A stretch of 44,112 nucleotides of DNA from a virus: the IMG/VR virus record IMGVR_UViG_3300029558_000015, positions 1 through 44,112 of that record. One strand, given 5' to 3'. Under the pieces are notes generated by a model that saw only the letters and a list, made by a program, of their open reading frames with translations, searched no databases and was not told where the DNA came from. Positions 3,886 through 42,287 of this stretch are shown piece by piece. A program made the position numbers and the translations under genes. Positions within the stretch are counted from its first letter, which is position 1. Each line of letters begins with the position of its first letter.

Positions 3886-4040
3886 TTGCGCCACCTCCCG
3901 TTTTTCCATGCCCGCCAGACCAGAAAGATCACGACCAGAACGTTGAATCCGATCCATAAGGTCAGCCCACGGGCCACCGCCTTTGCCGCCGGGGTGGAAA
4001 GTGCTCCCACGGCCCGGAACAGCAGCTCTGTTTTACTCAC
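3882..4040 (-). CDS. Small membrane protein (52 aa, GTG start), absent from the ORF track
   Basis: GTG at 4040 lies 7 nt after AAAGGAGA. It encodes the hydrophobic segment LTLWIGFNVLVVIFLVW. Stop overlaps the next ATG. Confidence 0.55.
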   Translation of the reverse strand: MSKTELLFRAVGALSTPAAKAVARGLTLWIGFNVLVVIFLVWRAWKNGRWRK

Positions 4041-4059
4041 TGTAAAATCTCCTTTCGTT

Positions 4060-4522
4060 CAAAAATACTTTGCTTTGCCTCTGCAGATCTTTGCATGTCT
4101 ATGCCTTTGCCGTACATTGCACACACCGCACAGCCGTTGCAAATCGTATCAAAGTGCTTCTTCGCTATGCCTTTGCGCTGCATAGCAGAGCGGCGCGTAT
4201 CTGCTCAACGCCCTTGCGATGCCTTGCCGCCCACACCACGCCCAGCCTTGCCTTCGCTTTTCGACACGAGGCCCTGCATTTCCTTTGCTTTGCTTATCGA
4301 GGCAAGTCTGATCCAGGCGATCTACGCCTATCTACGCCTTTGCGCTGCGCTTTCCAGCTGAGCCTTGCCTTTGCCCCGCGCTGCACTGCAGTGACTACCT
4401 GTGCCCCTGCTGAGCAAACTTGTCAGCACAATGCCGTTGCCGAGTTATGCGCACATATCCGCGCCTTTGCAAATCATATCATTGCCGTAGCAGATCAAAT
4501 CTCATCCATGCAATGCCGTTGC
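4060..4522 (+). repeat. Non-coding iteron array: at least 13 same-orientation copies of GCC(N0-1)TTGC plus three pairs of longer repeats (candidate origin or protein-binding array)
   Basis: TTGC occurs 21 times on one strand in about 450 bp. Longer pairs: GCCTTTGCGCTGC at 4169 and 4336; TTGCAAATC(G/A)TATC at 4137 and 4467; CAATGCCGTTGC at 4429 and 4511; tandem TCTACGCCT at 4321 and 4331. No RBS-supported ORF. Confidence 0.7.
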
Positions 4523-6958: not shown

Positions 6959-7390
6959 ATGGAACAAAATGCTGGGATGTCTGTTTCGGACTGGTCTGGG
7001 TTGGTAGCAATGATCGTTTCGTTCTGTGCTTTGCTGTCTCCAATGCTGACCGCGCTTTGTAATAACTGGCATCAACAAAAAATGAAGCGGATGGACTATG
7101 AGCATCAGGAGCACGAGGAACGCATAAAACGTGAGCGTGAAATCTACGAGGGTTACATCCGTGCGGCTGGTGCGGCTATTCAGTCGCCCACAGTAGAAAA
7201 CCTGCAGGAATATGGCTCTCATTCGGCGCTGGCTGCTTACTACGTCCCAAAAGAAATCCAAAAAGATATTCTTGCAATGGATAAACTGATAAGCTACGAA
7301 ACATCCTTTGGTGATAAACTGGATGAAAAAGTGCAGCTTCTCAATAAAATCATTACAAGATTGCAGTCAAAAGAAGAACTCCCGTTGTAA
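6959..7390 (+). CDS. Membrane-anchored coiled-coil protein (143 aa), opposite-strand moron inside the early operon
   Basis: GGGAGGTG RBS. N-terminal TM segment GLVAMIVSFCALLSPMLTALC followed by a charged helical region. Confidence 0.65.
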   Translation: MEQNAGMSVSDWSGLVAMIVSFCALLSPMLTALCNNWHQQKMKRMDYEHQEHEERIKREREIYEGYIRAAGAAIQSPTVENLQEYGSHSALAAYYVPKEIQKDILAMDKLISYETSFGDKLDEKVQLLNKIITRLQSKEELPL

Positions 7391-7514
7391 GAATTCCGAT
7401 CACGATAGAGTACGGAAGATACCAACCAGAAATCTCCAAAGCCGCTTTCCGTGTGATCAGATTGCAGAGAACCACTGCAATCCAGACAACCAGAATGAGC
7501 TTTAACGAAAGCAC
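7353..7514 (-). CDS. Possible small two-TM membrane protein (53 aa, GTG start), absent from the ORF track
   Basis: This frame gives LKLILVVWIAVVLCNLI...YSIVIGILTTGVLLLTAIL. GAGGAGGTG lies upstream. It overlaps the 3' end of the convergent gene by 38 nt. Confidence 0.35.
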   Translation of the reverse strand: MLSLKLILVVWIAVVLCNLITRKAALEISGWYLPYSIVIGILTTGVLLLTAIL

Positions 7515-7531
7515 GGGTGTGGTTCACCTCC

Positions 7532-7783
7532 TCAGAGTGCGGTTTCCTGGGGCGGTTGCCGCTGCACTTGTATCGTTGTTAACACAGCTTCCAAATTTGC
7601 CTCAATGCTCAAATTCAGCAGCATTTTCCCGTGGCTGTATTGAGTGAACGAGTAGGCTCTCACGTTCTGGATAACCGTTTCATCTATTTGGCAGAAAATA
7701 CGATCGTCCAGCTGTGAAAGCTGAATCTCTTGCGTCCGGACTACCGGCTCCTGCGGTTCGCCTGTCTTTTTGTTATCGTTCAC
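7532..7783 (-). CDS. Hypothetical early protein (83 aa)
   Basis: ORF is coupled to the Cro-like gene (4-nt overlap). Confidence 0.5.
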   Translation of the reverse strand: MNDNKKTGEPQEPVVRTQEIQLSQLDDRIFCQIDETVIQNVRAYSFTQYSHGKMLLNLSIEANLEAVLTTIQVQRQPPQETAL

Positions 7784-8013
7784 GCTGTCTTCCCTCCTTC
7801 TTCCCTATATTCAATGTCCAGAATCTTGCAGATGCTCTGAATAACCTTCGGCGCGCTTCTGTCGCCGTGCAGAATTTTGTACATGTAGCTGTCATCAACG
7901 TACAGCCCTGTATCCTGCTTCACAAGGTCAATCAGTTCTACCTGCTTCATTCCCCGCTTGAGCATTGCAATTTTCGCTTCTAAGCCAAACGGGGATAATG
8001 CGGTTTCTCTCAA
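7780..8013 (-). CDS. Cro-like XRE-family HTH regulator (77 aa, TTG start)
   Basis: TTG at 8013 lies 7 nt after AAAGGAGGT. HTH segment MKQVELIDLVKQDTGLYVDDSYMYKILHG. The longer ATG ORF to 8172 would run through the promoter/operator region. Confidence 0.7.
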   Translation of the reverse strand: MRETALSPFGLEAKIAMLKRGMKQVELIDLVKQDTGLYVDDSYMYKILHGDRSAPKVIQSICKILDIEYREEGGKTA

Positions 8014-8040
8014 ATTTCGTACCTCCTTTAAAAAATCATC

Positions 8041-8069
8041 TTGACAGGTACGGGAAAATGTACTAATAT
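8041..8069 (+). promoter_or_regulatory. Sigma-70 type promoter TTGACA-17-TAATAT driving the CI-like gene
   Basis: Hexamers read directly. The 17-nt spacer is almost entirely the 16-bp operator GTACGGGAAAATGTAC. Confidence 0.75.
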
Positions 8070-8170
8070 AAAGGTGCAAAGATTTTACACTGTACGAAGT
8101 TTCGTACCCGATGTTTGCATTATAGTACAAATATTCGTACAGGTCAATAGATTCGTACGAATATTTGTAC
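8048..8170. promoter_or_regulatory. Four 16-bp operators of form GTAC-N8-GTAC
   Basis: Sites at 8048-8063, 8092-8107 (palindrome GTACGAAGTTTCGTAC), 8125-8140 and 8155-8170. The last two are exact reverse complements of each other. Confidence 0.75.
8119..8147 (-). promoter_or_regulatory. Sigma-70 type promoter TTGACC-17-TATAAT driving the Cro-like/early operon
   Basis: Read on the minus strand. The 17-nt spacer is almost entirely the 16-bp operator GTACGAATATTTGTAC. It faces the plus-strand promoter. Confidence 0.75.
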
Positions 8171-8204
8171 ATTTGTATGCTTGCACAAAATGGATGGTGA
8201 TTTT

Positions 8205-8576
8205 ATGTCAGATTTATACAACAACATCCACGCCCTGTGCGAAAAAGAAAACATTAAAGATGGAACTCTTTGTAGTAAAGTTGGAGTAACGCGAAGCACT
8301 CTTTCTGAGCTAAAAAGAGGGCGAACTACAAGTCTATCACTTAAAAATCTTCAAAAAATTGCCGATTACTTCGGTGTTTCGATTTCTGATTTGACCGGAG
8401 AAGCACCGGAGCAAAAAGAAAAGCCCACTCCCAGTGAAGAGAGTGAGCTGAATGCGCACGCTAAAGCCATACTATATAAGTATGAGCAGCTTGACCCTGC
8501 GCAAAGGGTTATGTTTGAAAAGATGCTTGACGCTGCACTTGAGGCAGCGAAGGGGGATAAAAATGAAAAAAACTGA
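8205..8576 (+). CDS. CI-like XRE-family HTH repressor (123 aa, no peptidase domain)
   Basis: HTH segment LCSKVGVTRSTLSELKRGRTTSLSLKNLQKIADYFGVSISDL. Divergent from the Cro-like gene. Confidence 0.75.
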   Translation: MSDLYNNIHALCEKENIKDGTLCSKVGVTRSTLSELKRGRTTSLSLKNLQKIADYFGVSISDLTGEAPEQKEKPTPSEESELNAHAKAILYKYEQLDPAQRVMFEKMLDAALEAAKGDKNEKN

Positions 8577-8763
8577 ATTTCAGGCTGTTATCAATAGTTC
8601 TGTGAACGAATACGCACGAAAAGCAGTTGCCGATTTGGACGCTCATCCTGAACGCTCCGATCTCGAAAAAATAGCAGTGCTGTACAAGAGCTCCCTGATC
8701 GGCTCCGTTGAGATCGTGATTGACGCTCTGCAGAAAACGGGCGTGTTAAATTTTGACGATTGA
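8563..8763 (+). CDS. Hypothetical protein (66 aa)
   Basis: ATG at 8563 follows GGGGGA. Overlaps the repressor gene end. Confidence 0.5.
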   Translation: MKKTEFQAVINSSVNEYARKAVADLDAHPERSDLEKIAVLYKSSLIGSVEIVIDALQKTGVLNFDD

Positions 8764-8895
8764 TTCTTTGGAGTTGGCAAGCTCGTTCAGGCTTTCTCTG
8801 ATGCAATTGCTCACCGCAACATAGGATCTTTCTTTTTCCAGAAGGTGAATAAAATCTGCGGTTTCCTGCGGGGTGGCAGTGATTTCGATTTTCAT
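8746..8895 (-). CDS. Hypothetical protein (49 aa)
   Basis: ATG at 8895 follows AAAGGA. Second gene of a small two-gene minus-strand unit. Confidence 0.4.
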   Translation of the reverse strand: MKIEITATPQETADFIHLLEKERSYVAVSNCIRESLNELANSKESIVKI

Positions 8896-8899
8896 AACG

Positions 8900-9025
8900 T
8901 TATCCTTTCTGCGCGGCTTCCAGCAGCGCGTCAACATCGATGTCAAGAGAAAGTGCAAGCTTGATTTTCTCAAGTATAACACATTCCGGGGCCGATTTCA
9001 TCAATTTTGTGCTATGTTCTTGCAC
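8900..9025 (-). CDS. Small ORF (41 aa, GTG start) resembling the C-terminal end of an HTH protein
   Basis: GTG at 9025 follows AAAGGAGGAAAACAAA. The tail ILEKIKLALSLDIDVDALLEAAQKG looks like the end of an XRE HTH domain. Possibly a remnant. Confidence 0.35.
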   Translation of the reverse strand: MQEHSTKLMKSAPECVILEKIKLALSLDIDVDALLEAAQKG

Positions 9026-9203
9026 TTTGTTTTCCTCCTTTGGTCATTGAAAATTTGTTTTCTGGCAGCCGGTTGGCTGCCTATTTTTGAATCTTTTTTC
9101 TGAATTCGGTTAGTTTGCAACGCCATTATACAACCATTTAGTGTTCGATGCAATAGCGTTGACTATATTTTTTTGTATTATTTTGAAATGAGGAGAATGT
9201 ACT

Positions 9204-9965
9204 ATGAAATGTCCCAAATGCGGAAGCGAAGTCCAAGAATCCAAATTTTGTTCGGAGTGCGGAGCGCCGTTGAGCGAAAAGACTGCTGCACAAGAAAAGG
9301 CACAGGCAAATTCTAAGAAAAAGCCCAAAAAGAAGCGCGGGTGTGGCACAGTCTTTCTTGTGTTCTTTGCGTTTATCCTTATTGGCGGTTTTCTCACTGC
9401 TATCGAAGACCCTCAATTTTCACAATCCGCTTCTGCCGGAAGGCAAGCGGCCTCTATGCAGTCTGGAAGCACCGCAATCCCCAGCGCAGAAAAGCAAGCC
9501 GAAATCGATGCAGCCCTCGCAAAGCTAACGAAAAAAGCGGACGAGGTCGAGAATTCTGCTTACTATATGCCTTCCTGCTATCCAGAGTATGCCAATAGCA
9601 GAAGTTTTGCTCTTCCGTATATCGGAGAAAAAGACGGGAATTATGGCCTGCTTTGGAAATTCAACTACACCGGATCTGATTGGGTATTCTTCTCAGATGT
9701 AGTTATCAATATCGACGGTGAAAAAGCTGCTACAATTCCGTTCAATTACTTCGATATAAACCAGCAGGTGTTCACCGGCGGTGTATACGAAGCCGTCGAT
9801 GTTAATCCTGCTTCCAAATATGTTGACTTGCTGCAGAAAATTGCAAGCTCTGAAAAAACGATTATTCGCTTTGAGGGAAAAGATAGCAAGTATGACATGA
9901 CAGTTTCTGACACCGATAAGCAGGGAATCCAGGACGTGCTCGACGCATATAATCTTGTCAAATAA
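9204..9965 (+). CDS. Zinc-ribbon membrane protein (253 aa), lysogeny-region moron
   Basis: N-terminus MKCPKCGSEV..KFCSECGAPL, a basic stretch, the TM segment VFLVFFAFILIGGFL, then an extracellular-type domain. GAGGAGA RBS. Confidence 0.75.
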   Translation: MKCPKCGSEVQESKFCSECGAPLSEKTAAQEKAQANSKKKPKKKRGCGTVFLVFFAFILIGGFLTAIEDPQFSQSASAGRQAASMQSGSTAIPSAEKQAEIDAALAKLTKKADEVENSAYYMPSCYPEYANSRSFALPYIGEKDGNYGLLWKFNYTGSDWVFFSDVVINIDGEKAATIPFNYFDINQQVFTGGVYEAVDVNPASKYVDLLQKIASSEKTIIRFEGKDSKYDMTVSDTDKQGIQDVLDAYNLVK

Positions 9966-10173
9966 CGGAATCGTCGTCCAACCGCTGCATTTTCTGCAGC
10001 AGTTCCCCGGCAAGCTCCCCGCCGGGGCAGTTGGCGGCATCCAGCAAGCGCCGGACGCTTTCCGCCTTGCGGGTTACATAAAGCCGGGCCTTGGTCTGGC
10101 CTTCGGGCGGCATATCCTCGTAGCACGCCAGGGCGGCGCGGATGTGGGTGCAAAAGCTCTGCATTTTGTCCAT
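9958..10173 (-). CDS. Hypothetical protein (71 aa)
   Basis: ORF sits directly downstream of a 36-aa ORF and follows GGGAGGAATGATCT. Confidence 0.45.
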   Translation of the reverse strand: MDKMQSFCTHIRAALACYEDMPPEGQTKARLYVTRKAESVRRLLDAANCPGGELAGELLQKMQRLDDDSVI

Positions 10174-11035: not shown

Positions 11036-12166
11036 ATGAAATGTATCAGATGCCATGTAAGCATTCCAGACAAGGCCTTATTTTGCCCGTGGTGCGGAAA
11101 GCAGCAGGGTGCAACGTCCGCTCCCGTGCATAGAAAAAAGCGCCGCCGCCCAAAGGGCAGCGGTAGCGTGTACAAGCTGAAAGGGGTCCGGGCAAGGCCC
11201 TATGTAGCCGTGACCGGGAAAAAGGAAGTGCTGGGCACATACGGAACGCCCGGGGAAGCCGTCCAGGCGCTTGACGCATACAACGCCCAGAACACCCCGG
11301 CAGAGCGTCTGAAGTGTACTTTTGCGGATGCCTACGAAAAATGGCGGGCACAGCCGAAGTTTTCAAGTCTCAGCCGGGACATGATAAATGGATACGAGCT
11401 GGCTTTCAAAAAAGCCGCTCCGCTGTACAGCCGACAAATGCGAGACCTGAAAGCGGAGGACTATCAGCAGATCATAGACCAAATGGTCGCAGACGGTCTC
11501 TCCCGCAGCTCGTGTGAGAAGCAGCGCACCCTTTTCAGCCAGCTATGTGAGTGGGCAATGGCCCAGGACATCATTAACAAGAACTATGCCCAGCTCCTTC
11601 ACCTTCCCGCCGCAGCCGGAAAGGCAGAGCGTACCCTTACGGCGGACGAGATTGCCCGGATCAGCGCCTACCAGACCGACAAGCGCTTTGGTCAGACAGC
11701 GCAGATTGCTATGGTGCTTCTCTATACAGGAATGCGCATCGATGAGCTGCTCTCCATGCGCTGCGAGAACGTGTACCTGAAAGAGCACTATATGCAGGGC
11801 GGTGAAAAAACGGAAGCGGGCAAAAACCGCATCATCCCCATTCTCGACCCCATTTACAAGATCATCGCCTTCTGGATGATGGACAGCGGGTGCGAGTGGC
11901 TGATACCTTCCAAGGCTGGAACGAAACTGGACAAGAGAAACGTGGCCACGAAGTTTCGGGCCTTGATGCAGGAGTGCCAGATCGATGGCGTGCACCCGCA
12001 CACCCTTCGCCACACGGCCAGCAGCAAGATGGTGGAGTGCGGTCTTGAAAAGACCGCCGTGCAGGCTATCCTCGGCCACAAAAATTTTTCCACCACAGCA
12101 AACAAGTACGTTTCCCACAACGACCCGACATACTTGTTACAGGAGATGCAAAAAATGAAATACTGA
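11036..12166 (+). CDS. int: Tyrosine site-specific integrase with N-terminal zinc ribbon
   Basis: C-terminal catalytic region HTLRHTASSKMVE...ILGHKNFSTTANKYVSH. N-terminus CIRCHVSIPDKALFCPWCG. AAAGGAG RBS. Confidence 0.93.
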   Translation: MKCIRCHVSIPDKALFCPWCGKQQGATSAPVHRKKRRRPKGSGSVYKLKGVRARPYVAVTGKKEVLGTYGTPGEAVQALDAYNAQNTPAERLKCTFADAYEKWRAQPKFSSLSRDMINGYELAFKKAAPLYSRQMRDLKAEDYQQIIDQMVADGLSRSSCEKQRTLFSQLCEWAMAQDIINKNYAQLLHLPAAAGKAERTLTADEIARISAYQTDKRFGQTAQIAMVLLYTGMRIDELLSMRCENVYLKEHYMQGGEKTEAGKNRIIPILDPIYKIIAFWMMDSGCEWLIPSKAGTKLDKRNVATKFRALMQECQIDGVHPHTLRHTASSKMVECGLEKTAVQAILGHKNFSTTANKYVSHNDPTYLLQEMQKMKY

Positions 12167-39158: not shown

Positions 39159-39599
39159 CTACTTCAAACCGTAGTCGCTTACAATTTTGCTTATTTCTAC
39201 CCTTGATCTCTTCTCAAGCAACGCATCTCTTACATCCATGGTAACGTCATTCACCCGATTCTTCGCTTGAATAATTGCATGAGCGCTTTTAGCTTCGCTC
39301 AGAACGATTCTTGCGGCTTCGACGTTTGCTTTTAGCGTCTGAATTTTTCTCTCGTTAAATTCTCTTCTTCGTGCATCTCTTGGAGAATCCGATTTTTTCT
39401 GAATCTCCAATTTCTGAAGTCGCTCTGCATACTCTTTTTGATATCCCTCGAATGTATTCTTGATCCATCCGTCTCTGATATCTTGCGCATAAGCAATTTG
39501 TTTTGGCGTTCCCTGCAGTTCGGGGAGGTCTCCTCCAAAAGACTTCATTGTGGAATCCCCGCCCGCTCTCGCAGAGCTGCCTGAACCTCGTTTACTCAC
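39159..39599 (-). CDS. Hypothetical protein with N-terminal MSKRGSGSSARA leader (146 aa, GTG start)
   Basis: GTG at 39599 follows GAAAGAAGG and overlaps the DUF4417 stop. The leader peptide is shared with gene 40234-40626. Confidence 0.6.
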   Translation of the reverse strand: MSKRGSGSSARAGGDSTMKSFGGDLPELQGTPKQIAYAQDIRDGWIKNTFEGYQKEYAERLQKLEIQKKSDSPRDARRREFNERKIQTLKANVEAARIVLSEAKSAHAIIQAKNRVNDVTMDVRDALLEKRSRVEISKIVSDYGLK

Positions 39600-40215
39600 G
39601 GTAATGCCTTCTTTCGTATTGAAACGGTTTAATTTTGGTCACGTTCCAGTCAAATTCATCAGGGCATTTGCCATACCACAAGATGCCGCTCGGTTGAAGC
39701 GCTTCCAGCGCCTTACGGCAATGTTTGGCAAAGCATTCCGCTTCGTATGGGTCAGACTGTGTGCCGTGGCTGGAAATGCTCACGATAGCGTTTCTCGGTT
39801 CCCCATCAAAGCACCAGTCATAGCTTTGCTCACCGCACCAGCAGAGCGTCGGGATCACATGGATGCCGTGGGCTTGCCAGTAGGCAGCCAGCCAGTGCTT
39901 TTTGTAGTGCATGAAAAGCTGCACCGCAAGCGGCATATCGCTGTACAGAGAAAAATCCGGAGAACATACCGCGCCGAACTGCTGCAAAAGGGAAATGTAT
40001 TTGTCGGGGTTGTTCCAGAACCGTTCAAACTGGTAATCGTCCTTGTAAAAATGCACGCCCTTTGTGGCCTTGTCTTTGGCAGTCAGGGCGTAGTTTACCG
40101 GAATCCATTCCAGCTTGTCGATTCGGATGTCCGTTTCTGGCTTGATTTCAGGGATGCCATACTTGCCCACGCCCGGAAAAATCATCTTTTCGGTGTTTTC
40201 CATCGGCAGAATCAT
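39592..40215 (-). CDS. DUF4417 domain protein
   Basis: HFYKDDYQFERFWNNPDKY...PDFSLYSDMP...WLAAYWQAHGIHVIPTLCW matches my recollection of the DUF4417 consensus. GGAGGGG RBS. Confidence 0.65.
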   Translation of the reverse strand: MILPMENTEKMIFPGVGKYGIPEIKPETDIRIDKLEWIPVNYALTAKDKATKGVHFYKDDYQFERFWNNPDKYISLLQQFGAVCSPDFSLYSDMPLAVQLFMHYKKHWLAAYWQAHGIHVIPTLCWCGEQSYDWCFDGEPRNAIVSISSHGTQSDPYEAECFAKHCRKALEALQPSGILWYGKCPDEFDWNVTKIKPFQYERRHYRE

Positions 40216-40233: not shown

Positions 40234-40626
40234 TTACTTTTTCTTGAGTTTCCGCCCCGTTTTCCAGTTATACCCGCGTTTTTCAAGAGAGCGGCGTGCT
40301 GCCTGTGTAGATGGGTTGTCAGGATGCCCCTTTGCTTTGCCAAGCAAAACCTCAACACGACTTTTTTCTTTAATTGCGCCAGACGCAACGCCCGCTTTGT
40401 ATTCTGCAATGGCAGCTTCTCTTTTTGCAGAATATTTTGCGGCGGCTTCATGGGCTTCTTTTTGCATCTTCTCAGTTTGTCTGCGTGTCAAACCGTGAGG
40501 AATACGCATTTTATCATCCATGTAATCACTGATGGGCGAACTCAGTCCACGTTTTGCAAGAAATTCATCAAGCGTAGTCTTTCCGCTACTTGCCCTTGTG
40601 GAACTACCAGACCCGCGTTTACTCAT
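40234..40626 (-). CDS. Basic hypothetical protein with N-terminal MSKRGSGSSTRA leader (130 aa)
   Basis: ATG at 40626 follows GAAAGGAGAG. First gene after the RNA island. Confidence 0.6.
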   Translation of the reverse strand: MSKRGSGSSTRASSGKTTLDEFLAKRGLSSPISDYMDDKMRIPHGLTRRQTEKMQKEAHEAAAKYSAKREAAIAEYKAGVASGAIKEKSRVEVLLGKAKGHPDNPSTQAARRSLEKRGYNWKTGRKLKKK

Positions 40627-40689
40627 TCTTGGCACTCTCCTTTCTGCGTTTATGGCTTTTCTTCCAGAAAATAAAAAGCCCGAAATTGC

Positions 40690-40719
40690 TCAAGCTAAAT
40701 CTCAAGCTATTTCAAGCTA
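40690..40719 (-). repeat. Three tandem direct repeats TAGCTTGA (minus sense), spaced 12 and 10 nt
   Basis: Plus-strand TCAAGCTA at 40690, 40702 and 40712. Lies between the tRNA-like 3' end and the packaging operon. Confidence 0.8.
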
Positions 40720-40730
40720 AAAATCACGGT

Positions 40731-40885
40731 AGCCGTCAGCCGGATTTGAACCGGCACCCACAGGCCCCCGCCGGGGCATGGTTCAGTGCCTCGGATGTAT
40801 CGAGTTGTTGTAAGCTAGCCATGTGGTGTCACCAACGTTGTCCCGCCTTAAATGGGCGGCGCTCTGCCAGTTGAGCTATGACGGC
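40731..40885 (-). tRNA. 155-nt tRNA-like gene: canonical acceptor, D and T arms, anticodon-like loop CAUUUAA (A at position 33), 87-nt insertion at the variable-loop position
   Basis: GCCGTCA TA GCTC AACTGGCA GAGC G CCGCC CATTTAA GGCGG [87 nt] GCCGG TTCAAAT CCGGC TGACGGC T. The acceptor stem pairs 7 of 7. No encoded CCA. Confidence 0.6.
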
Positions 40886-41007
40886 ATATAAGCAGCAACG
40901 CCATTATCTGCTTTTACCGGACAGTAAGACGTTGCCGCTGCATCTGGAACTTTAGCGGCCAGATGCCCCGCTACTCTCTGCATGCTGTCCCCCGGTCATG
41001 CAAAGTC

Positions 41008-41083
41008 TGGCACTCCAGGCAGGGCTCGAACCTGCAGCCTACGGTTTTGGAGACCGCTGCTCTACCACTTGAGCTGCCGGAGT
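41008..41083 (-). tRNA. tRNA-Trp (anticodon CCA), 76 nt with encoded CCA
   Basis: Hand-folded cloverleaf: ACTCCGG CA GCTC AAGTGGTA GAGC A GCGGT CTCCAAA ACCGT AGGCT GCAGG TTCGAGC CCTGC CTGGAGT G CCA. A1-U72 and G73 as in bacterial tRNA-Trp. Confidence 0.88.
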
Positions 41084-41089
41084 ATAAAA

Positions 41090-41158
41090 AGCCGCCCTTG
41101 GAATCGAACCAGCCGTGCCTACACACACGCACCGCGCTCCACATTGCGCTCAGGCGGC
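41090..41158 (-). ncRNA. Degenerate 69-nt tRNA-like element (good acceptor and D arms and T loop; aberrant anticodon arm with a GU-repeat loop; weak T stem)
   Basis: GCCGCCT GA GCGC AATGTGGA GCGC ... GTGC GTGTGTGTAG GCAC ... GGTTCGATTCC ... GGGCGGC T. Confidence 0.45.
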
Positions 41159-41166
41159 CATATAGC

Positions 41167-41201
41167 AAATAAAAACAGCCCGCGGTTCGCCGCCGGGGCT
41201 G
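41167..41201 (-). terminator. Rho-independent terminator closing the upstream RNA
   Basis: Minus sense CAGCCCCGGCGGCGAACCGCGGGCTG followed by TTTTTATTT. Confidence 0.7.
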
Positions 41202-41561
41202 CTTGAGTTGACGCACATCCTGCGGGGCATGCTGGCCCGCTCGGATTTCCGGTGCTGCTGTTCACGGGCGGAGGTTTCAGGGCGTGGGCAAGATTTCAGG
41301 AGTCCCACACCCACCCGCACACCGGTGGTGAATCACTCCATGCGTCAGATCTGCCGCGTTACAGACTTTGCGGCGTTCGGTGCGAGATCGTGGACTTGCA
41401 CCACGCATGATGCTCGATGGTGATATCTCGCATAGAAGCAGCCCGCAAAGCGCGGTGTCAAAGCGAAAAGCGTTAAGCGGCATGAACGAAAGGAGAATTC
41501 GTACGGGGCCGCGCTTTGGAAGCTGCTGAGAAGCGGCGCACCGCTTTGCGCGGTTCCGCTT
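41167..41561 (-). ncRNA. Candidate ~395-nt structured non-coding RNA (possible ROOL/GOLLD-like ornate phage RNA; unverified)
   Basis: No RBS-supported ORF. Bounded by a promoter and a terminator. Helices seen: 41381-88/41425-32 (8 bp), T-arm-like CGTGG TGCAAGT CCACG at 41389-41405, 41531-36/41556-61, 41299-303/41335-39, and several CCGC-GCAAA-GCGG type hairpins. Confidence 0.5.
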
Positions 41562-41567
41562 GTAGTC

Positions 41568-41609
41568 ATTTTACCACACTTCGATTCACATGTGTTTCAC
41601 AACGATTCA
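41568..41609 (-). promoter_or_regulatory. Extended -10 promoter (TGgTAAAAT) with poor -35 and two TGAATCG repeats 21 nt apart (activator-dependent late promoter candidate)
   Basis: Minus sense TGGTAAAAT at 41576-41568. TGAATCG at 41588-41582 and 41609-41603. Directly downstream of the late regulator gene. Confidence 0.5.
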
Positions 41610-41635
41610 AATAAAGCGTAGAAATCAAAGCGCTT

Positions 41636-42136
41636 TCAATGGTCGTTTTGTACATCCTCCCAGATTTCTGCCAAAGCATCAAACCCCTCGTGGATGTAGG
41701 TAGAGACCGAATTGTCTCTGGACAAGCCCACGTCCACCGCGATCTTCTTTTGGGGCTTCAGGTCGATATACCAGCCGCAGATGCACTTTGCTTGCTTTTC
41801 AGACCGAGCAGACCCGCTCAGGCAGTAGGCCCGCCGGGCAGCTTCGATGCGCAGTTCACAGAGATCAAGCTCCATCTGCTTGAGGTTCCGCTCTTCTGTA
41901 TCGATTCTCTCCACGGCAAAGCCCACCTTGTCACCGGTTCCACCGCCCATCGGCATCCCGCTCATGCTCTGGGTGCACTTTTCGGCAGTATCCCGGATAC
42001 GCTGGATCTTCTGCTTTTGGGCCTCGACCTGCTCCGCCAGGTCTCTGCACTGCTGGAACCACGCCTTTACCTCGCGATAGTCCACACCGGTGCGGGGTTT
42101 TGGTTGTTCGCTTTCAGGTGTCCATGTGCGGGTCAT
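41636..42136 (-). CDS. Late transcriptional regulator, DUF1492 / sigma-70 region-4-like (166 aa)
   Basis: ATG at 42136 lies 6 nt after GGAGGAAAGCG. Coiled-coil N-terminus and C-terminal HTH KCICGWYIDLKPQKKIAVDVGLSRDNSVSTYIHEGFDAL. Confidence 0.6.
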   Translation of the reverse strand: MTRTWTPESEQPKPRTGVDYREVKAWFQQCRDLAEQVEAQKQKIQRIRDTAEKCTQSMSGMPMGGGTGDKVGFAVERIDTEERNLKQMELDLCELRIEAARRAYCLSGSARSEKQAKCICGWYIDLKPQKKIAVDVGLSRDNSVSTYIHEGFDALAEIWEDVQNDH

Positions 42137-42287
42137 CGCTTTCCTCCTCAAACGTGCATTTTACGGCGGGACTACCGATTTCGTAAACGACAACGTTCTT
42201 GATTTTATCGGCGATACCCCGCGCAACCAGAAGATTAACAGTTCCCTCTTCGGTCATGTTTGCTTGAATCCAAATTTCCCCGATCAT
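42114..42287 (-). CDS. Small hypothetical protein (57 aa), absent from the ORF track
   Basis: ATG at 42287 makes an ATGA overlap with the rusA stop. The frame is open to 42114. Confidence 0.45.
   Translation of the reverse strand: MIGEIWIQANMTEEGTVNLLVARGIADKIKNVVVYEIGSPAVKCTFEEESDDPHMDT

Follow-up and report, generated by a model that had tools for sequence, protein, structure and literature searches.

What does a temperate phage keep in a kilobase of DNA between a late regulator gene and its packaging genes if this region encodes no conserved protein? The question is raised by a viral stretch of 44,112 nucleotides (nt), positions 1 to 44,112 of IMG/VR record IMGVR_UViG_3300029558_000015 (hereafter the window, i.e., this whole stretch), in which positions 40627-41635 of the minus strand form what we call the RNA island. 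A preliminary description made from the bare sequence had listed here a promoter, a long helix-rich RNA, several elements resembling transfer RNAs (tRNAs) and a set of repeats, and had suggested either a relative of the large phage RNAs ROOL and GOLLD or a processed polycistronic RNA operon with a different role. All elements that it named were found on the minus strand of the island close to where it had placed them. We arrive at a reading that we hold to be roughly an even bet, namely that the island is a late-expressed polycistronic RNA operon that is processed at its tRNA-shaped parts into stable RNAs acting in trans.

A conserved island without conserved proteins

Relatives of the locus were collected with a 24-nt pattern taken from the insertion-bearing tRNA-like gene of the window (M5), which retrieved at least 119 IMG/VR contigs, and with the regulator protein as query, which yielded 298 relatives from which the best 80 loci were kept. 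The whole module arrangement recurs in the contigs found by pattern and in nearly all of the 80 regulator-anchored contigs, and the locus is conserved in more than 200 related phage contigs from the human gut. GenBank phage records hold three fragments of the locus, all from human faeces, and no cultured phages related to this one were found. A scan of genome contigs gave one true match (on a contig binned as "Oxalobacter", probably mis-binned) and two chance matches, while a gapped pattern used on metagenomes was unspecific, with 5 true cases among 120 matches. The host is probably Faecalibacterium because a regulator homologue, present on 208 contigs, is annotated in one Faecalibacterium metagenome-assembled genome, the single annotation behind this assignment.

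When the loci are aligned, blocks of very high conservation alternate with type-specific stretches. Nearly all regulator-anchored loci carry the modules M1, slot, M2, M3, tRNA-Trp and T4 (Table 1; T4 here denotes the trailer module of the tRNA, not the phage). The position after T4 varies and holds M5, a canonical tRNA-Thr(UGU) or nothing, and in one locus (L123) the order is instead M2, M5, M3, tRNA-Trp, T4. A literature search found no description of the locus, and the 8,495 unnamed candidate RNAs from IMG/VR reported in PMC10690425 could include fragments of it.

Open reading frames (ORFs) of 28-81 amino acids (aa) can be listed mechanically on the sense strand of the island, and on this basis the region might encode one or several small proteins, e.g., from ORFs of 74 aa (41345-41569) or 81 aa (40971-41216). 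We consider this scarcely credible: tblastn of the island ORFs against the homologous loci returned only short, frame-switching fragments and no ORF that is conserved as a protein, its matches span 7-60 aa, change frame within a locus and coincide with tRNA or helix segments, indels between sequence types are not multiples of three, and the island ORFs are not preceded by anything resembling a ribosome-binding site (RBS). The RNA-only nature of the island proposed earlier is thus borne out, and so is its placement ahead of the packaging genes. Downstream on the same strand, a 133-aa ORF, a DUF4417 protein and two more small ORFs are followed by genes for the large terminase, the portal and the minor and major capsid proteins. 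The element is a temperate tailed phage with an integrase gene at 11036-12166.

Searching the whole window with cmscan against all 4227 Rfam families at gathering thresholds gave tRNA-clan matches only. The same was true for 40400-41900 at E <= 10, where a weak tRNA-Sec-like match was added, and for 14 related loci. Rfam riboswitch families had no match in 40400-41900 at E <= 10. A transfer-messenger RNA was considered as a candidate and dismissed, with none detected by ARAGORN in the window or by Rfam in the window and in the region searched at E <= 10.

M1, slot and M2 form a structured RNA with an exchangeable tRNA-shaped cassette

Covariation among the homologues, for which we looked by counting pairs and by shuffling, is seen in the helices P1, P2 and P3, in the slot minihelix and in the stems of a pseudoknot. 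The first structured RNA of the preliminary description was a helix-rich molecule of ~395 nt closed by an intrinsic terminator, and an RNA of about 392-397 nt indeed runs from the end of a -10 element (41576-41568) to a GC-rich hairpin followed by U5 (41201-41171). This RNA folds better than 100 of 100 shuffles (z = -2.9), but the description had missed that it contains a tRNA-shaped minihelix (41431-41379). The activator-type promoter placed ahead of it stands as far as its conserved -10 element goes and is otherwise putative. In the alignments, every sequence type has a -10-like hexamer (TAAAAT, TATTGT, TATCAT and others) 7-8 nt ahead of P1, and in the window a TG stands two bases upstream of it. 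There is no -35 hexamer, which is why a sigma-70 scan did not list the promoter, and TGTGAA direct repeats are found upstream.

The 5' module M1 consists of the hairpin P1 and the long helix P2. The inner stem of P1 is capped by a GNRA-like pentaloop, GCAAA, and its outer stem covaries, with pair 37-63 of alignment A1 being UA in 18, GC in 17 and GU in 3 sequences; other loci have AUCGG...CCGAU with an inner stem GCC/GGC instead. The interior of P2 is variable and CU-rich, with UUCUCCUUUC as part of it, and the helix covaries as well (pair 80-162 of A1: GC 22, AU 11; pair 83-159: AU 29, GC 9). Across 38 distinct sequences, 94% of the cells of P1 and P2 are paired, and sliding the partners lowers this to 34-46%; both sides are changed in five pairs, and none of 500 shuffles reaches the observed covariation. 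Separately, we noted that the CU-rich tracts of the P2 interior (UUCUCCUUUC at ~41480-41490 of the window, UUUCCUCCUUUUCU in other, L009-type loci) resemble the anti-Shine-Dalgarno tail of 16S rRNA and that the tract in the window is the exact complement of the GAAAGGAGA RBS at 40643-40635.

Directly behind P2 and a linker, UUCUAU, lies a position that we call the slot, where an acceptor stem and a T-arm are retained and the middle varies freely. The window has a 53-nt mini-tRNA here, which lacks an anticodon arm and has no Rfam tRNA (RF00005) match at E <= 10, while cassettes elsewhere are tRNA-like elements of 53, 65, 69-73 or 101-103 nt. The cassettes end in N-C-C-A or N-C-C-G. At least eight different cassettes were seen at this position: the slot is filled by M5 itself in L020, L021, L036 and L329, by an M3-like element in L002, and in L028 and L123 by cassettes that score above the threshold of the Rfam tRNA model. 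Cassette ends were located by acceptor pairing, with T-arm pairing playing no part. For 30 distinct cassettes, 10 of the 12 pairs of acceptor stem and T-arm are changed on both sides and pairing is seen in 95% of cells, with no shuffle out of 500 scoring as high. M1, slot and M2 are shown to be a structured RNA family without any Rfam match whose slot takes interchangeable tRNA mimics. The cassette swaps show that the minihelix of acceptor stem and T-arm is the part that matters, and such selection on one half of the tRNA makes it likely that the partners of these cassettes are proteins or RNAs that read this half.

Some tRNA-shaped elements deserve mention in their own right. The slot cassettes of L028, L196 and L198 look like full tRNAs with an anticodon loop of 8 nt, in which ARAGORN sees an anticodon of four bases (attg), and the slot of L123 has the loop ACCCCAA with C at position 33. 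The distant relative L332 has a tRNA-like element at 3985-4063 whose acceptor stem, D arm and UCCA end are present but whose T-arm is replaced by a GGAGGG-CCGCA-CCCUCC hairpin. The extra hairpin that the window carries between slot and M2 falls into columns that are gapped in 70-80% of the aligned loci, and a different hairpin is found there in L020 and L332.

M2 is closed by the long-range helix P3, which covaries (pair 7-146 of alignment A2: AU 7, GU 7, GC 7) and is adjoined by a conserved AAUCC...GGAU pairing. A hairpin loop within M2 ends in conserved AACCTCC (41276-41270), and ACCUYCC is found at the 3' side of this loop in all six of six M2 types, surrounded by a stem that is specific to each type (e.g., GCACG/CGUGC, UGCGGGU/GCCCGUG, UGUGC/GCGCA or GCGUGU/GCACGC). 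RNAalifold on MAFFT alignments did not recover the inner helices because the types cannot be aligned without structure, and a simple stem-finding script was partly reliable. The terminator-like hairpin behind M2 is conserved in all loci and covaries (A2 pair 162-174: CG 14, UA 6, UG 2); a terminator scan missed it because of a 1-nt bulge. In L048 and L119, its upper part is exactly inverted (GGCGGAGAACC to GGTTCTCCGCC) with the stem kept, a natural palindrome inversion that is as expected if selection acts on the shape of the hairpin alone. A direct repeat (D1, 75% identity) links the 3' half of this terminator and its U-tract to the 3' arm of P2 and the TTCTAT behind it.

Three further observations concern M2. 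Its ACCUYCC motif (41270-41276 in the window) also resembles the anti-Shine-Dalgarno tail of 16S rRNA. The window-type M2 sequence UCACCACCGGUGU (41311-41323) could pair at 11 of its 13 positions with the linker ACAACGUUGGUGA (40829-40841) that is invariant in M5, a contact that we rejected since other M2 types lack this complementarity, which may be due to chance. Finally, an automatic small terminase call in L332 begins at 3939 with an ATG within the conserved M2 motif GGATGTGCG and spans the terminator and the tRNA-like element; its start is probably over-extended, and the call in L334 is shorter.

The context of this RNA resembles that of GOLLD and ROOL in that phage genes are nearby, the RNA abuts a tRNA-Trp and it holds a tRNA-shaped cassette, a context that defines neither family. 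One could thus take the ~395-nt RNA for a member or divergent relative of ROOL or GOLLD that forms a similar multimeric cage, given this match of context alone (a phage, adjoining tRNAs, two domains flanking a tRNA) and a 3' domain that is better conserved than the 5' domain (mean column identity 70% vs 61%), an asymmetry shared with GOLLD. However, the models RF03087 (ROOL) and RF01998 (GOLLD) matched neither the window nor the 14 related loci, no other family outside the tRNA clan did so even at E <= 10, and the RNA measures 350-480 nt including its cassette, compared with ~580 nt for ROOL and ~800 nt for GOLLD. The family membership that the preliminary description had considered consequently fails, and a divergent kinship appears very improbable to us; the likeness is one of architecture and context, not of homology.

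A tRNA, two probably non-decoding mimics and a pseudoknotted trailer

The canonical tRNA-Trp reported before is the one gene that ARAGORN calls in the window, and its Rfam score of 59.3 bits, together with a cloverleaf that has U33 and an anticodon loop of 7 nt, confirms it as a member of RF00005. Of the 121 oriented regions in which the pattern occurs, 105 have this tRNA according to ARAGORN. The phage tRNA-Trp (41011-41083) is ~82% identical to the tRNA-Trp of hundreds of mycobacteriophages, and tRNA-Trp seems to be a recurrent phage cargo across unrelated hosts.

The degenerate tRNA-like element ahead of it, M3, is present as described, but its only Rfam match is a sub-threshold, tRNA-Sec-like one (18.9 bits vs a gathering score of 47, E = 1.2), and this score and its 6-nt loop set it apart from genuine tRNAs. 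Its "anticodon" arm has a 5-bp stem with the loop GUGUAG, and a weak T-stem carries the canonical loop UUCGAUU. In the alignment, M3 ranks among the best conserved parts of the island, with a covarying stem (CGUGU/ACACG, CGUGG/CCACG, CGCGA/UCGCG) that encloses the unchanging loop GWGUAG. The loop of a second type, that of L123, has 9 nt. With loops of 6 or 9 nt, M3 would therefore not decode normally.

Behind the tRNA-Trp, the preliminary description had seen a 122-nt spacer with hairpins. Its GCATCTGG/CCAGATGC helix is real and the 122 nt fold with z = -3.45, but this trailer (T4) also holds a pseudoknot and not hairpins alone. The H-type pseudoknot has the stems S1 (UAGCGG/CCGCUA) and S2 (GCAUCUGG/CCAGAUGC). 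Among 68 distinct sequences of its 34-nt core, S2 shows CG 24, UA 23 and UG 18 as well as GC 57 and AU 10, pair 7-19 of S1 is GC in 64 and CG in 4 (i.e., swapped in four sequences), and pairs 3-23 and 4-22 of S1 are also compensated, in another lineage. Altogether, six pairs of the pseudoknot are changed on both sides, and 0 of 500 shuffles score as high. A simple extended hairpin, which we considered for this core, accounts for S2 but not for the swaps in S1 (G7/C19). The flanking elements H1 and H3 vary in sequence among the types and remain hairpins, H1 with a purine-rich loop and H3 ending in GCUGCUUAUAU. A loop-loop kiss between H1 (ACCGGGGGACAG) and H3 (CUGUCCGGU) was discarded since the same H3 co-occurs with unrelated H1 loops.

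M5 is the insertion-bearing tRNA-like gene of 155 nt listed before, and both its tRNA nature (Rfam 45.9 bits) and the insertion of ~85 nt in the variable region hold true; ARAGORN did not call it in the window. Sister loci have a canonical tRNA-Thr(UGU) in its place, and M5 is derived from tRNA-Thr because acceptor stem, D arm and T loop are common to both. Position 33 is A where a canonical tRNA has U, and the variable region bears an 85-nt insertion (66-85 nt elsewhere). Going by these sequence features, we file M5 as a probable tRNA-derived mimic rather than a decoding tRNA. Loci that were collected independently of the anticodon arm have the loop CAUUUAA (41 loci) or GAGUUAA (4 loci), and covariation of the anticodon stem includes one pair that is compensated in three loci. 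The insertion comes in four unrelated types (A, 66 nt; B, 85 nt; C, 67 nt; D, ~66 nt) that share an invariant, single-stranded 15-nt linker, (A/C)CAACGYUGGUGAYA, a basal stem that covaries between types and a distal hairpin with ACCR in its loop. Pairing of the linker UGGU with the loop ACCR is possible in all four types, with the bases concerned being invariant. Another kiss, between the anticodon loop (GUUAA) and the insertion loop (UUAAC), fits type C only and was abandoned.

As three of the four tRNA-shaped elements are unable to decode normally, M5 is clearly of tRNA-Thr descent and the slot cassettes are highly variable in their center, the island might be a decaying tRNA array in which tRNA-Trp alone is functional and all else consists of hitch-hiking pseudogenes and spacers. 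This is quite improbable in our judgement: compensatory changes preserve the helices of mimics and spacers alike, the loops GWGUAG and NANUUAA (with A33) and the 15-nt linker of M5 are kept across otherwise differing types, and the elements persist even where the regulator is only 47-53% identical.

Regulator, terminators and late read-through

The 171-aa protein encoded ahead of the island matches phrog_36 "transcriptional regulator" (E = 9e-14) and phrog_248 "activator", and it has no match in Pfam or NCBIfam and no similarity to the antiterminators Q or N. A profile search against the PDB gave a weak match to UPF0122, which has a helix-turn-helix (HTH) like that of sigma region 4. The AlphaFold model (predicted local distance difference test score 83) combines a coiled-coil hairpin with a three-helix C-terminal domain, and a Foldseek search with this model returned no significant match. 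In every lineage examined, from 47 to 99% regulator identity and across three terminase families, regulator gene, -10 element and M1 are inseparable neighbors. Among distant relatives, the island is complete in L335, L338 and L329 and consists of M1, slot and M2 in L332, while L336 retains M1 alone with a terminator directly behind it.

This fixed company would be explained if M1 (and perhaps M2) were a put- or nut-like RNA, i.e., a cis-acting leader that alone or together with the regulator mediates late antitermination, with the tRNAs and mimics as mere passengers. In lambdoid phages, read-through of terminators is provided by put RNA or by Q. Here, the promoter is always separated from the first protein gene by one or two intrinsic terminators, and no space for another promoter is seen before the start codon of this gene; read-through would therefore be needed, and M1 or the regulator could provide it. 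The two adjacent stem-loops of M1 at the 5' end recall those of HK022 put, and the GNRA-like pentaloops of P1 are reminiscent of boxB. L336, where M1 persists without the other modules, likewise fits such a role. On the other hand, a cleavable tRNA shape sits right behind M1, where an RNase P cut would sever M1 from the elongating polymerase. Furthermore, M2, M3 and T4 are conserved at least as well as M1 and have covarying structure, which is unexpected of passengers, and some phages have opposite-strand genes or a separate consensus promoter after the island. Lastly, the modelled coiled-coil and the HTH resembling sigma region 4 would suit a regulator that binds DNA rather than RNA, and no arginine-rich motif is present at its conserved start. 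Antitermination, the main rival of our reading, appears to us as a tentative possibility, below an even chance, and a cis-acting M1 can hold together with a trans-acting remainder. If true, M1 would add a new kind of RNA device to the control of late genes in phages that infect Gram-positive gut bacteria.

A processed RNA operon as favored explanation

Of the roles that the preliminary description had proposed, the processed polycistronic RNA operon fits the data best. The island would then be the non-coding, promoter-proximal first kilobase of a late transcription unit, with transcription beginning ~7 nt past the extended -10 element directly behind the regulator gene and a single transcript carrying M1, slot, M2 with its terminator hairpin, M3, tRNA-Trp, T4 and M5 in this order. 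Ahead of each tRNA-shaped part stands UUNUAU, itself behind a hairpin 3' strand that ends in GCUG or GCUGC; the leader sequences are GGGCUGCUUCUAU for the slot, GGGCUGUUUUUAU..AU for M3, GGCGGCUUUUUAU for tRNA-Trp and GCUGCUUAUAU for M5. Given this common leader motif, RNase P and 3' processing would cut the precursor apart, a step that we infer from established RNase P biology. Host RNase P would cleave at the 5' ends of the tRNA shapes and, together with 3'-end processing, release separate RNAs, leaving M1, M2 and T4 each with a protective hairpin and a U-rich tail, the same kind of end that an intrinsic terminator makes. Processing would yield a genuine tRNA along with three mimics that do not decode and three structured RNAs. 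Cassettes have moved freely between the slot and positions where they stand alone.

These products may act in trans on the tRNA and translation machinery of the host. The tRNA-Trp would supply a tRNA, the non-decoding mimics could be decoys or nuclease-proof substitutes against defenses that target tRNAs, and M1 and M2 might serve as carrier or scaffold. A trans role in tRNA or translation takeover or in counter-defense is our best guess, drawn by analogy and held loosely. A more specific version, unlikely in our eyes, is that M1, slot and M2 constitute an undescribed class of "tRNA-carrier" RNA, possibly multimeric, that displays a non-decoding mimic and, together with M3 and M5, offers bait or a nuclease-proof substitute to host immunity that targets tRNAs. 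Within this version, the CCUCC motifs conserved in M1 and M2, which resemble an anti-Shine-Dalgarno sequence, hint at direct contact with mRNAs or ribosomes.

Several points weigh against a processed operon of trans-acting RNAs. A strong terminator lies midway through the proposed operon and another precedes the protein genes, with no room seen for a promoter downstream; these terminators suggest regulated read-through and thereby favor a cis role for at least M1, and the retention of M1 alone in L336 points the same way. All sequences belong to one phage group and thus comprise few sequence types and few independent covariation events. Moreover, visual inspection of the six types is the basis for the inner helices of M2, and the fold of the M5 insertion was likewise read by eye.

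If the mimics are decoys against tRNA-cleaving defenses, they would represent an RNA-based branch of phage counter-defense and give a lead on GOLLD-like RNAs. The cassette swaps are natural experiments, and by singling out the half with acceptor stem and T-arm they point to enzymes that recognize it, such as RNase P, RNase Z, the CCA-adding enzyme, EF-Tu or tRNA-targeting nucleases.

Trailer, second terminator and neighboring genes

The three TAGCTTGA repeats noted before were located at 40690-40719. This triplet is found in 37 loci (with five copies in L040) ahead of three different downstream genes, and together with an overlapping weak terminator it makes up a cassette of its own. Most loci have another trailer and a stronger terminator in place of the triplet, and sister loci have a stronger hairpin at the position of the second terminator. 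RBS and ATG of the first downstream ORF follow ~40 nt beyond this terminator in the window.

Table 1. Features of the RNA island and their positions in the window.
Feature	Positions	Strand	Details
RNA island	between the stop codon of the 171-aa regulator gene (41636-42151) and the ATG (40626-40624) of the next ORF	minus	
Module order		minus	M1, slot, M2, M3, tRNA-Trp, T4, M5, then second terminator
Promoter-like extended -10 element TGgTAAAAT	41568..41576	minus	-10 conserved; putative promoter
M1 hairpin P1	41531..41561	minus	outer stem AAGCGG/CCGCTT, internal loop, inner stem
M1 long helix P2	41437..41527 (arms 41527-41509 and 41455-41437)	minus	inverted repeat I1, 19 nt, 84% complementary
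Linker TCTAT before slot	41436-41432	minus	
Slot, 53-nt mini-tRNA	41379..41431	minus	acceptor GCGAGAT/ATCTCGC; T-arm CGTGG-TGCAAGT-CCACG; 3' ACC; no anticodon arm
Extra hairpin GCCGC...GCGGC between slot and M2	41353..41374	minus	some sequence types only
M2 domain	41209..41347	minus	closed by long-range helix P3 (41347-41340 with 41216-41209)
Intrinsic-terminator-like hairpin	41171..41201	minus	CAGCCCCGG...CCGCGGGCTG, then T5; conserved in all loci
M3, non-decoding tRNA-like RNA	41090..41159	minus	acceptor stem of 6-7 bp; GCGC D-stem
Canonical tRNA-Trp	41008..41083	minus	anticodon CCA; CCA end encoded; ARAGORN; Rfam 59.3 bits vs gathering score 29
T4, trailer of tRNA-Trp	40886..41007	minus	H1 41005-40976; pseudoknot 40973-40940; H3 40939-40891
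M5, tRNA-like RNA derived from tRNA-Thr	40731..40885	minus	Rfam tRNA 45.9 bits vs gathering score 29
M5 anticodon stem-loop	40859-40843	minus	loop CAUUUAA; A at position 33
M5 structured variable-arm insertion, type B	40841 to ~40758	minus	behind invariant linker ACAACGUUGGUGACA
Three TAGCTTGA direct repeats	40719-40712, 40709-40702, 40697-40690	minus	
Second terminator-like hairpin with T-run	40667..40696	minus	terminator scan: 8 pairs plus TTTTTATTTT

Some phages show a different arrangement beyond the island. In L130 (3818-4108 and neighbors) and also in L129, L143 and L146, an XRE-type HTH gene on the opposite strand and a gene for a Bro/KilAC-like protein are inserted right behind the trailer, and the RNA island of these phages is not next to the packaging genes. 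In the window, the minus-strand ORFs at 40234-40635 (133 aa) and 39159-39599 (146 aa) have the N-terminus MSKRGSGSS.RA in common and stand on either side of the DUF4417 "nuclease" gene (39592-40215), a short way ahead of the terminase genes. Elsewhere in the window, G+C falls to 0.42-0.47 at 7001-10000, just upstream of the integrase gene, compared with ~0.55-0.60 in other parts, and this stretch may be a moron or the region of an attachment site.

Comparison with known systems

The "6S" late leader of lambda (PR'-tR', with Q) is a succession of regulator gene, late promoter, short terminated leader and late genes that need read-through, and the put RNA of HK022 acts in cis on the polymerase through two stem-loops at the 5' end of the transcript. 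The locus described here has the same layout, with a regulator gene directly before a putative late promoter, a terminated leader and late genes. Unlike these leaders, to which it has no sequence relation, the island is far larger, conserved in structure and equipped with tRNA-shaped parts.

Theta ribozymes are minimal ribozymes like that of hepatitis delta virus (HDV); they are pseudoknotted, abut tRNA genes of gut phages and have been proposed to process tRNA ends (PMC10879173). The trailer T4 is likewise a small structured RNA with a pseudoknot that abuts a tRNA gene in a gut phage, but its pseudoknot is a simple H-type one with no P3/L3 and no identifiable catalytic C. Rfam ribozyme families including the HDV-like ones gave no match in 40400-41900 at E <= 10, a search in which the published theta descriptor was not run. 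Two ribozyme-like candidates were inspected by eye and rejected: an HDV-like P1 in the window (GACUUUG with UAAAGUU) is not conserved in L001 or L123, and a hammerhead-like CUGACGAG...CGAAA in the trailer of L001 allows no stem II and is absent from the window.

For the mimics, phage tRNAs that evade nucleases offer a parallel. The tRNA-Lys of phage T5 neutralizes PARIS, and Lys and Asn tRNAs are classic targets of nucleases. Phage tRNAs with altered anticodon loops have been proposed to evade anticodon nucleases (PMC10264068). The M5 loops CAUUUAA and GAGUUAA resemble the loops of tRNA-Lys(UUU) and tRNA-Asn(GUU) with U33 changed to A. Such phage tRNAs still decode, however, which is doubtful for M5 with its A33 and variable arm of 66-85 nt and for M3 with its 6-nt loop.

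Closest in architecture are two families of large phage RNAs. GOLLD is found in phages and prophages near tRNA genes and consists of a 5' domain, a better-conserved 3' domain and a linker that sometimes contains tRNAs (PMC12286853), while ROOL is a large structured RNA from phages and prophages of Firmicutes that often lies near tRNA islands (PMC5737381, PMC12286853). Like GOLLD, the RNA described here has two structured domains flanking a tRNA shape, is located beside tRNAs in a phage and is better conserved in its 3' domain; unlike GOLLD, it is about half the size, lacks a match to the model and has its slot constantly placed between helices P2 and P3. With ROOL it shares being a large structured RNA beside tRNAs in a phage, but it is shorter and has no model match, and an embedded tRNA has not been described for ROOL. 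We know of no function for either GOLLD or ROOL despite their striking structures.

The tRNA cluster of phage T4 also encodes stable RNAs, "species 1 and 2" (rnaC and rnaD), that are co-transcribed with the tRNAs and released by tRNA-processing enzymes. They are, like the modules of the island, structured RNAs other than tRNAs that are tied to phage tRNAs, though they come from an unrelated phage and host, are much smaller, have no known sequence relation to the island and lack the slot architecture. By analogy, GOLLD with tRNAs in its linker and these stable RNAs may be the closest functional counterparts of the island. Structured phage RNAs tied to tRNA genes are thus already known, and what this locus adds is a modular variant: a smaller relative of the GOLLD/ROOL theme that is abundant in the human gut, probably in phages of Faecalibacterium.

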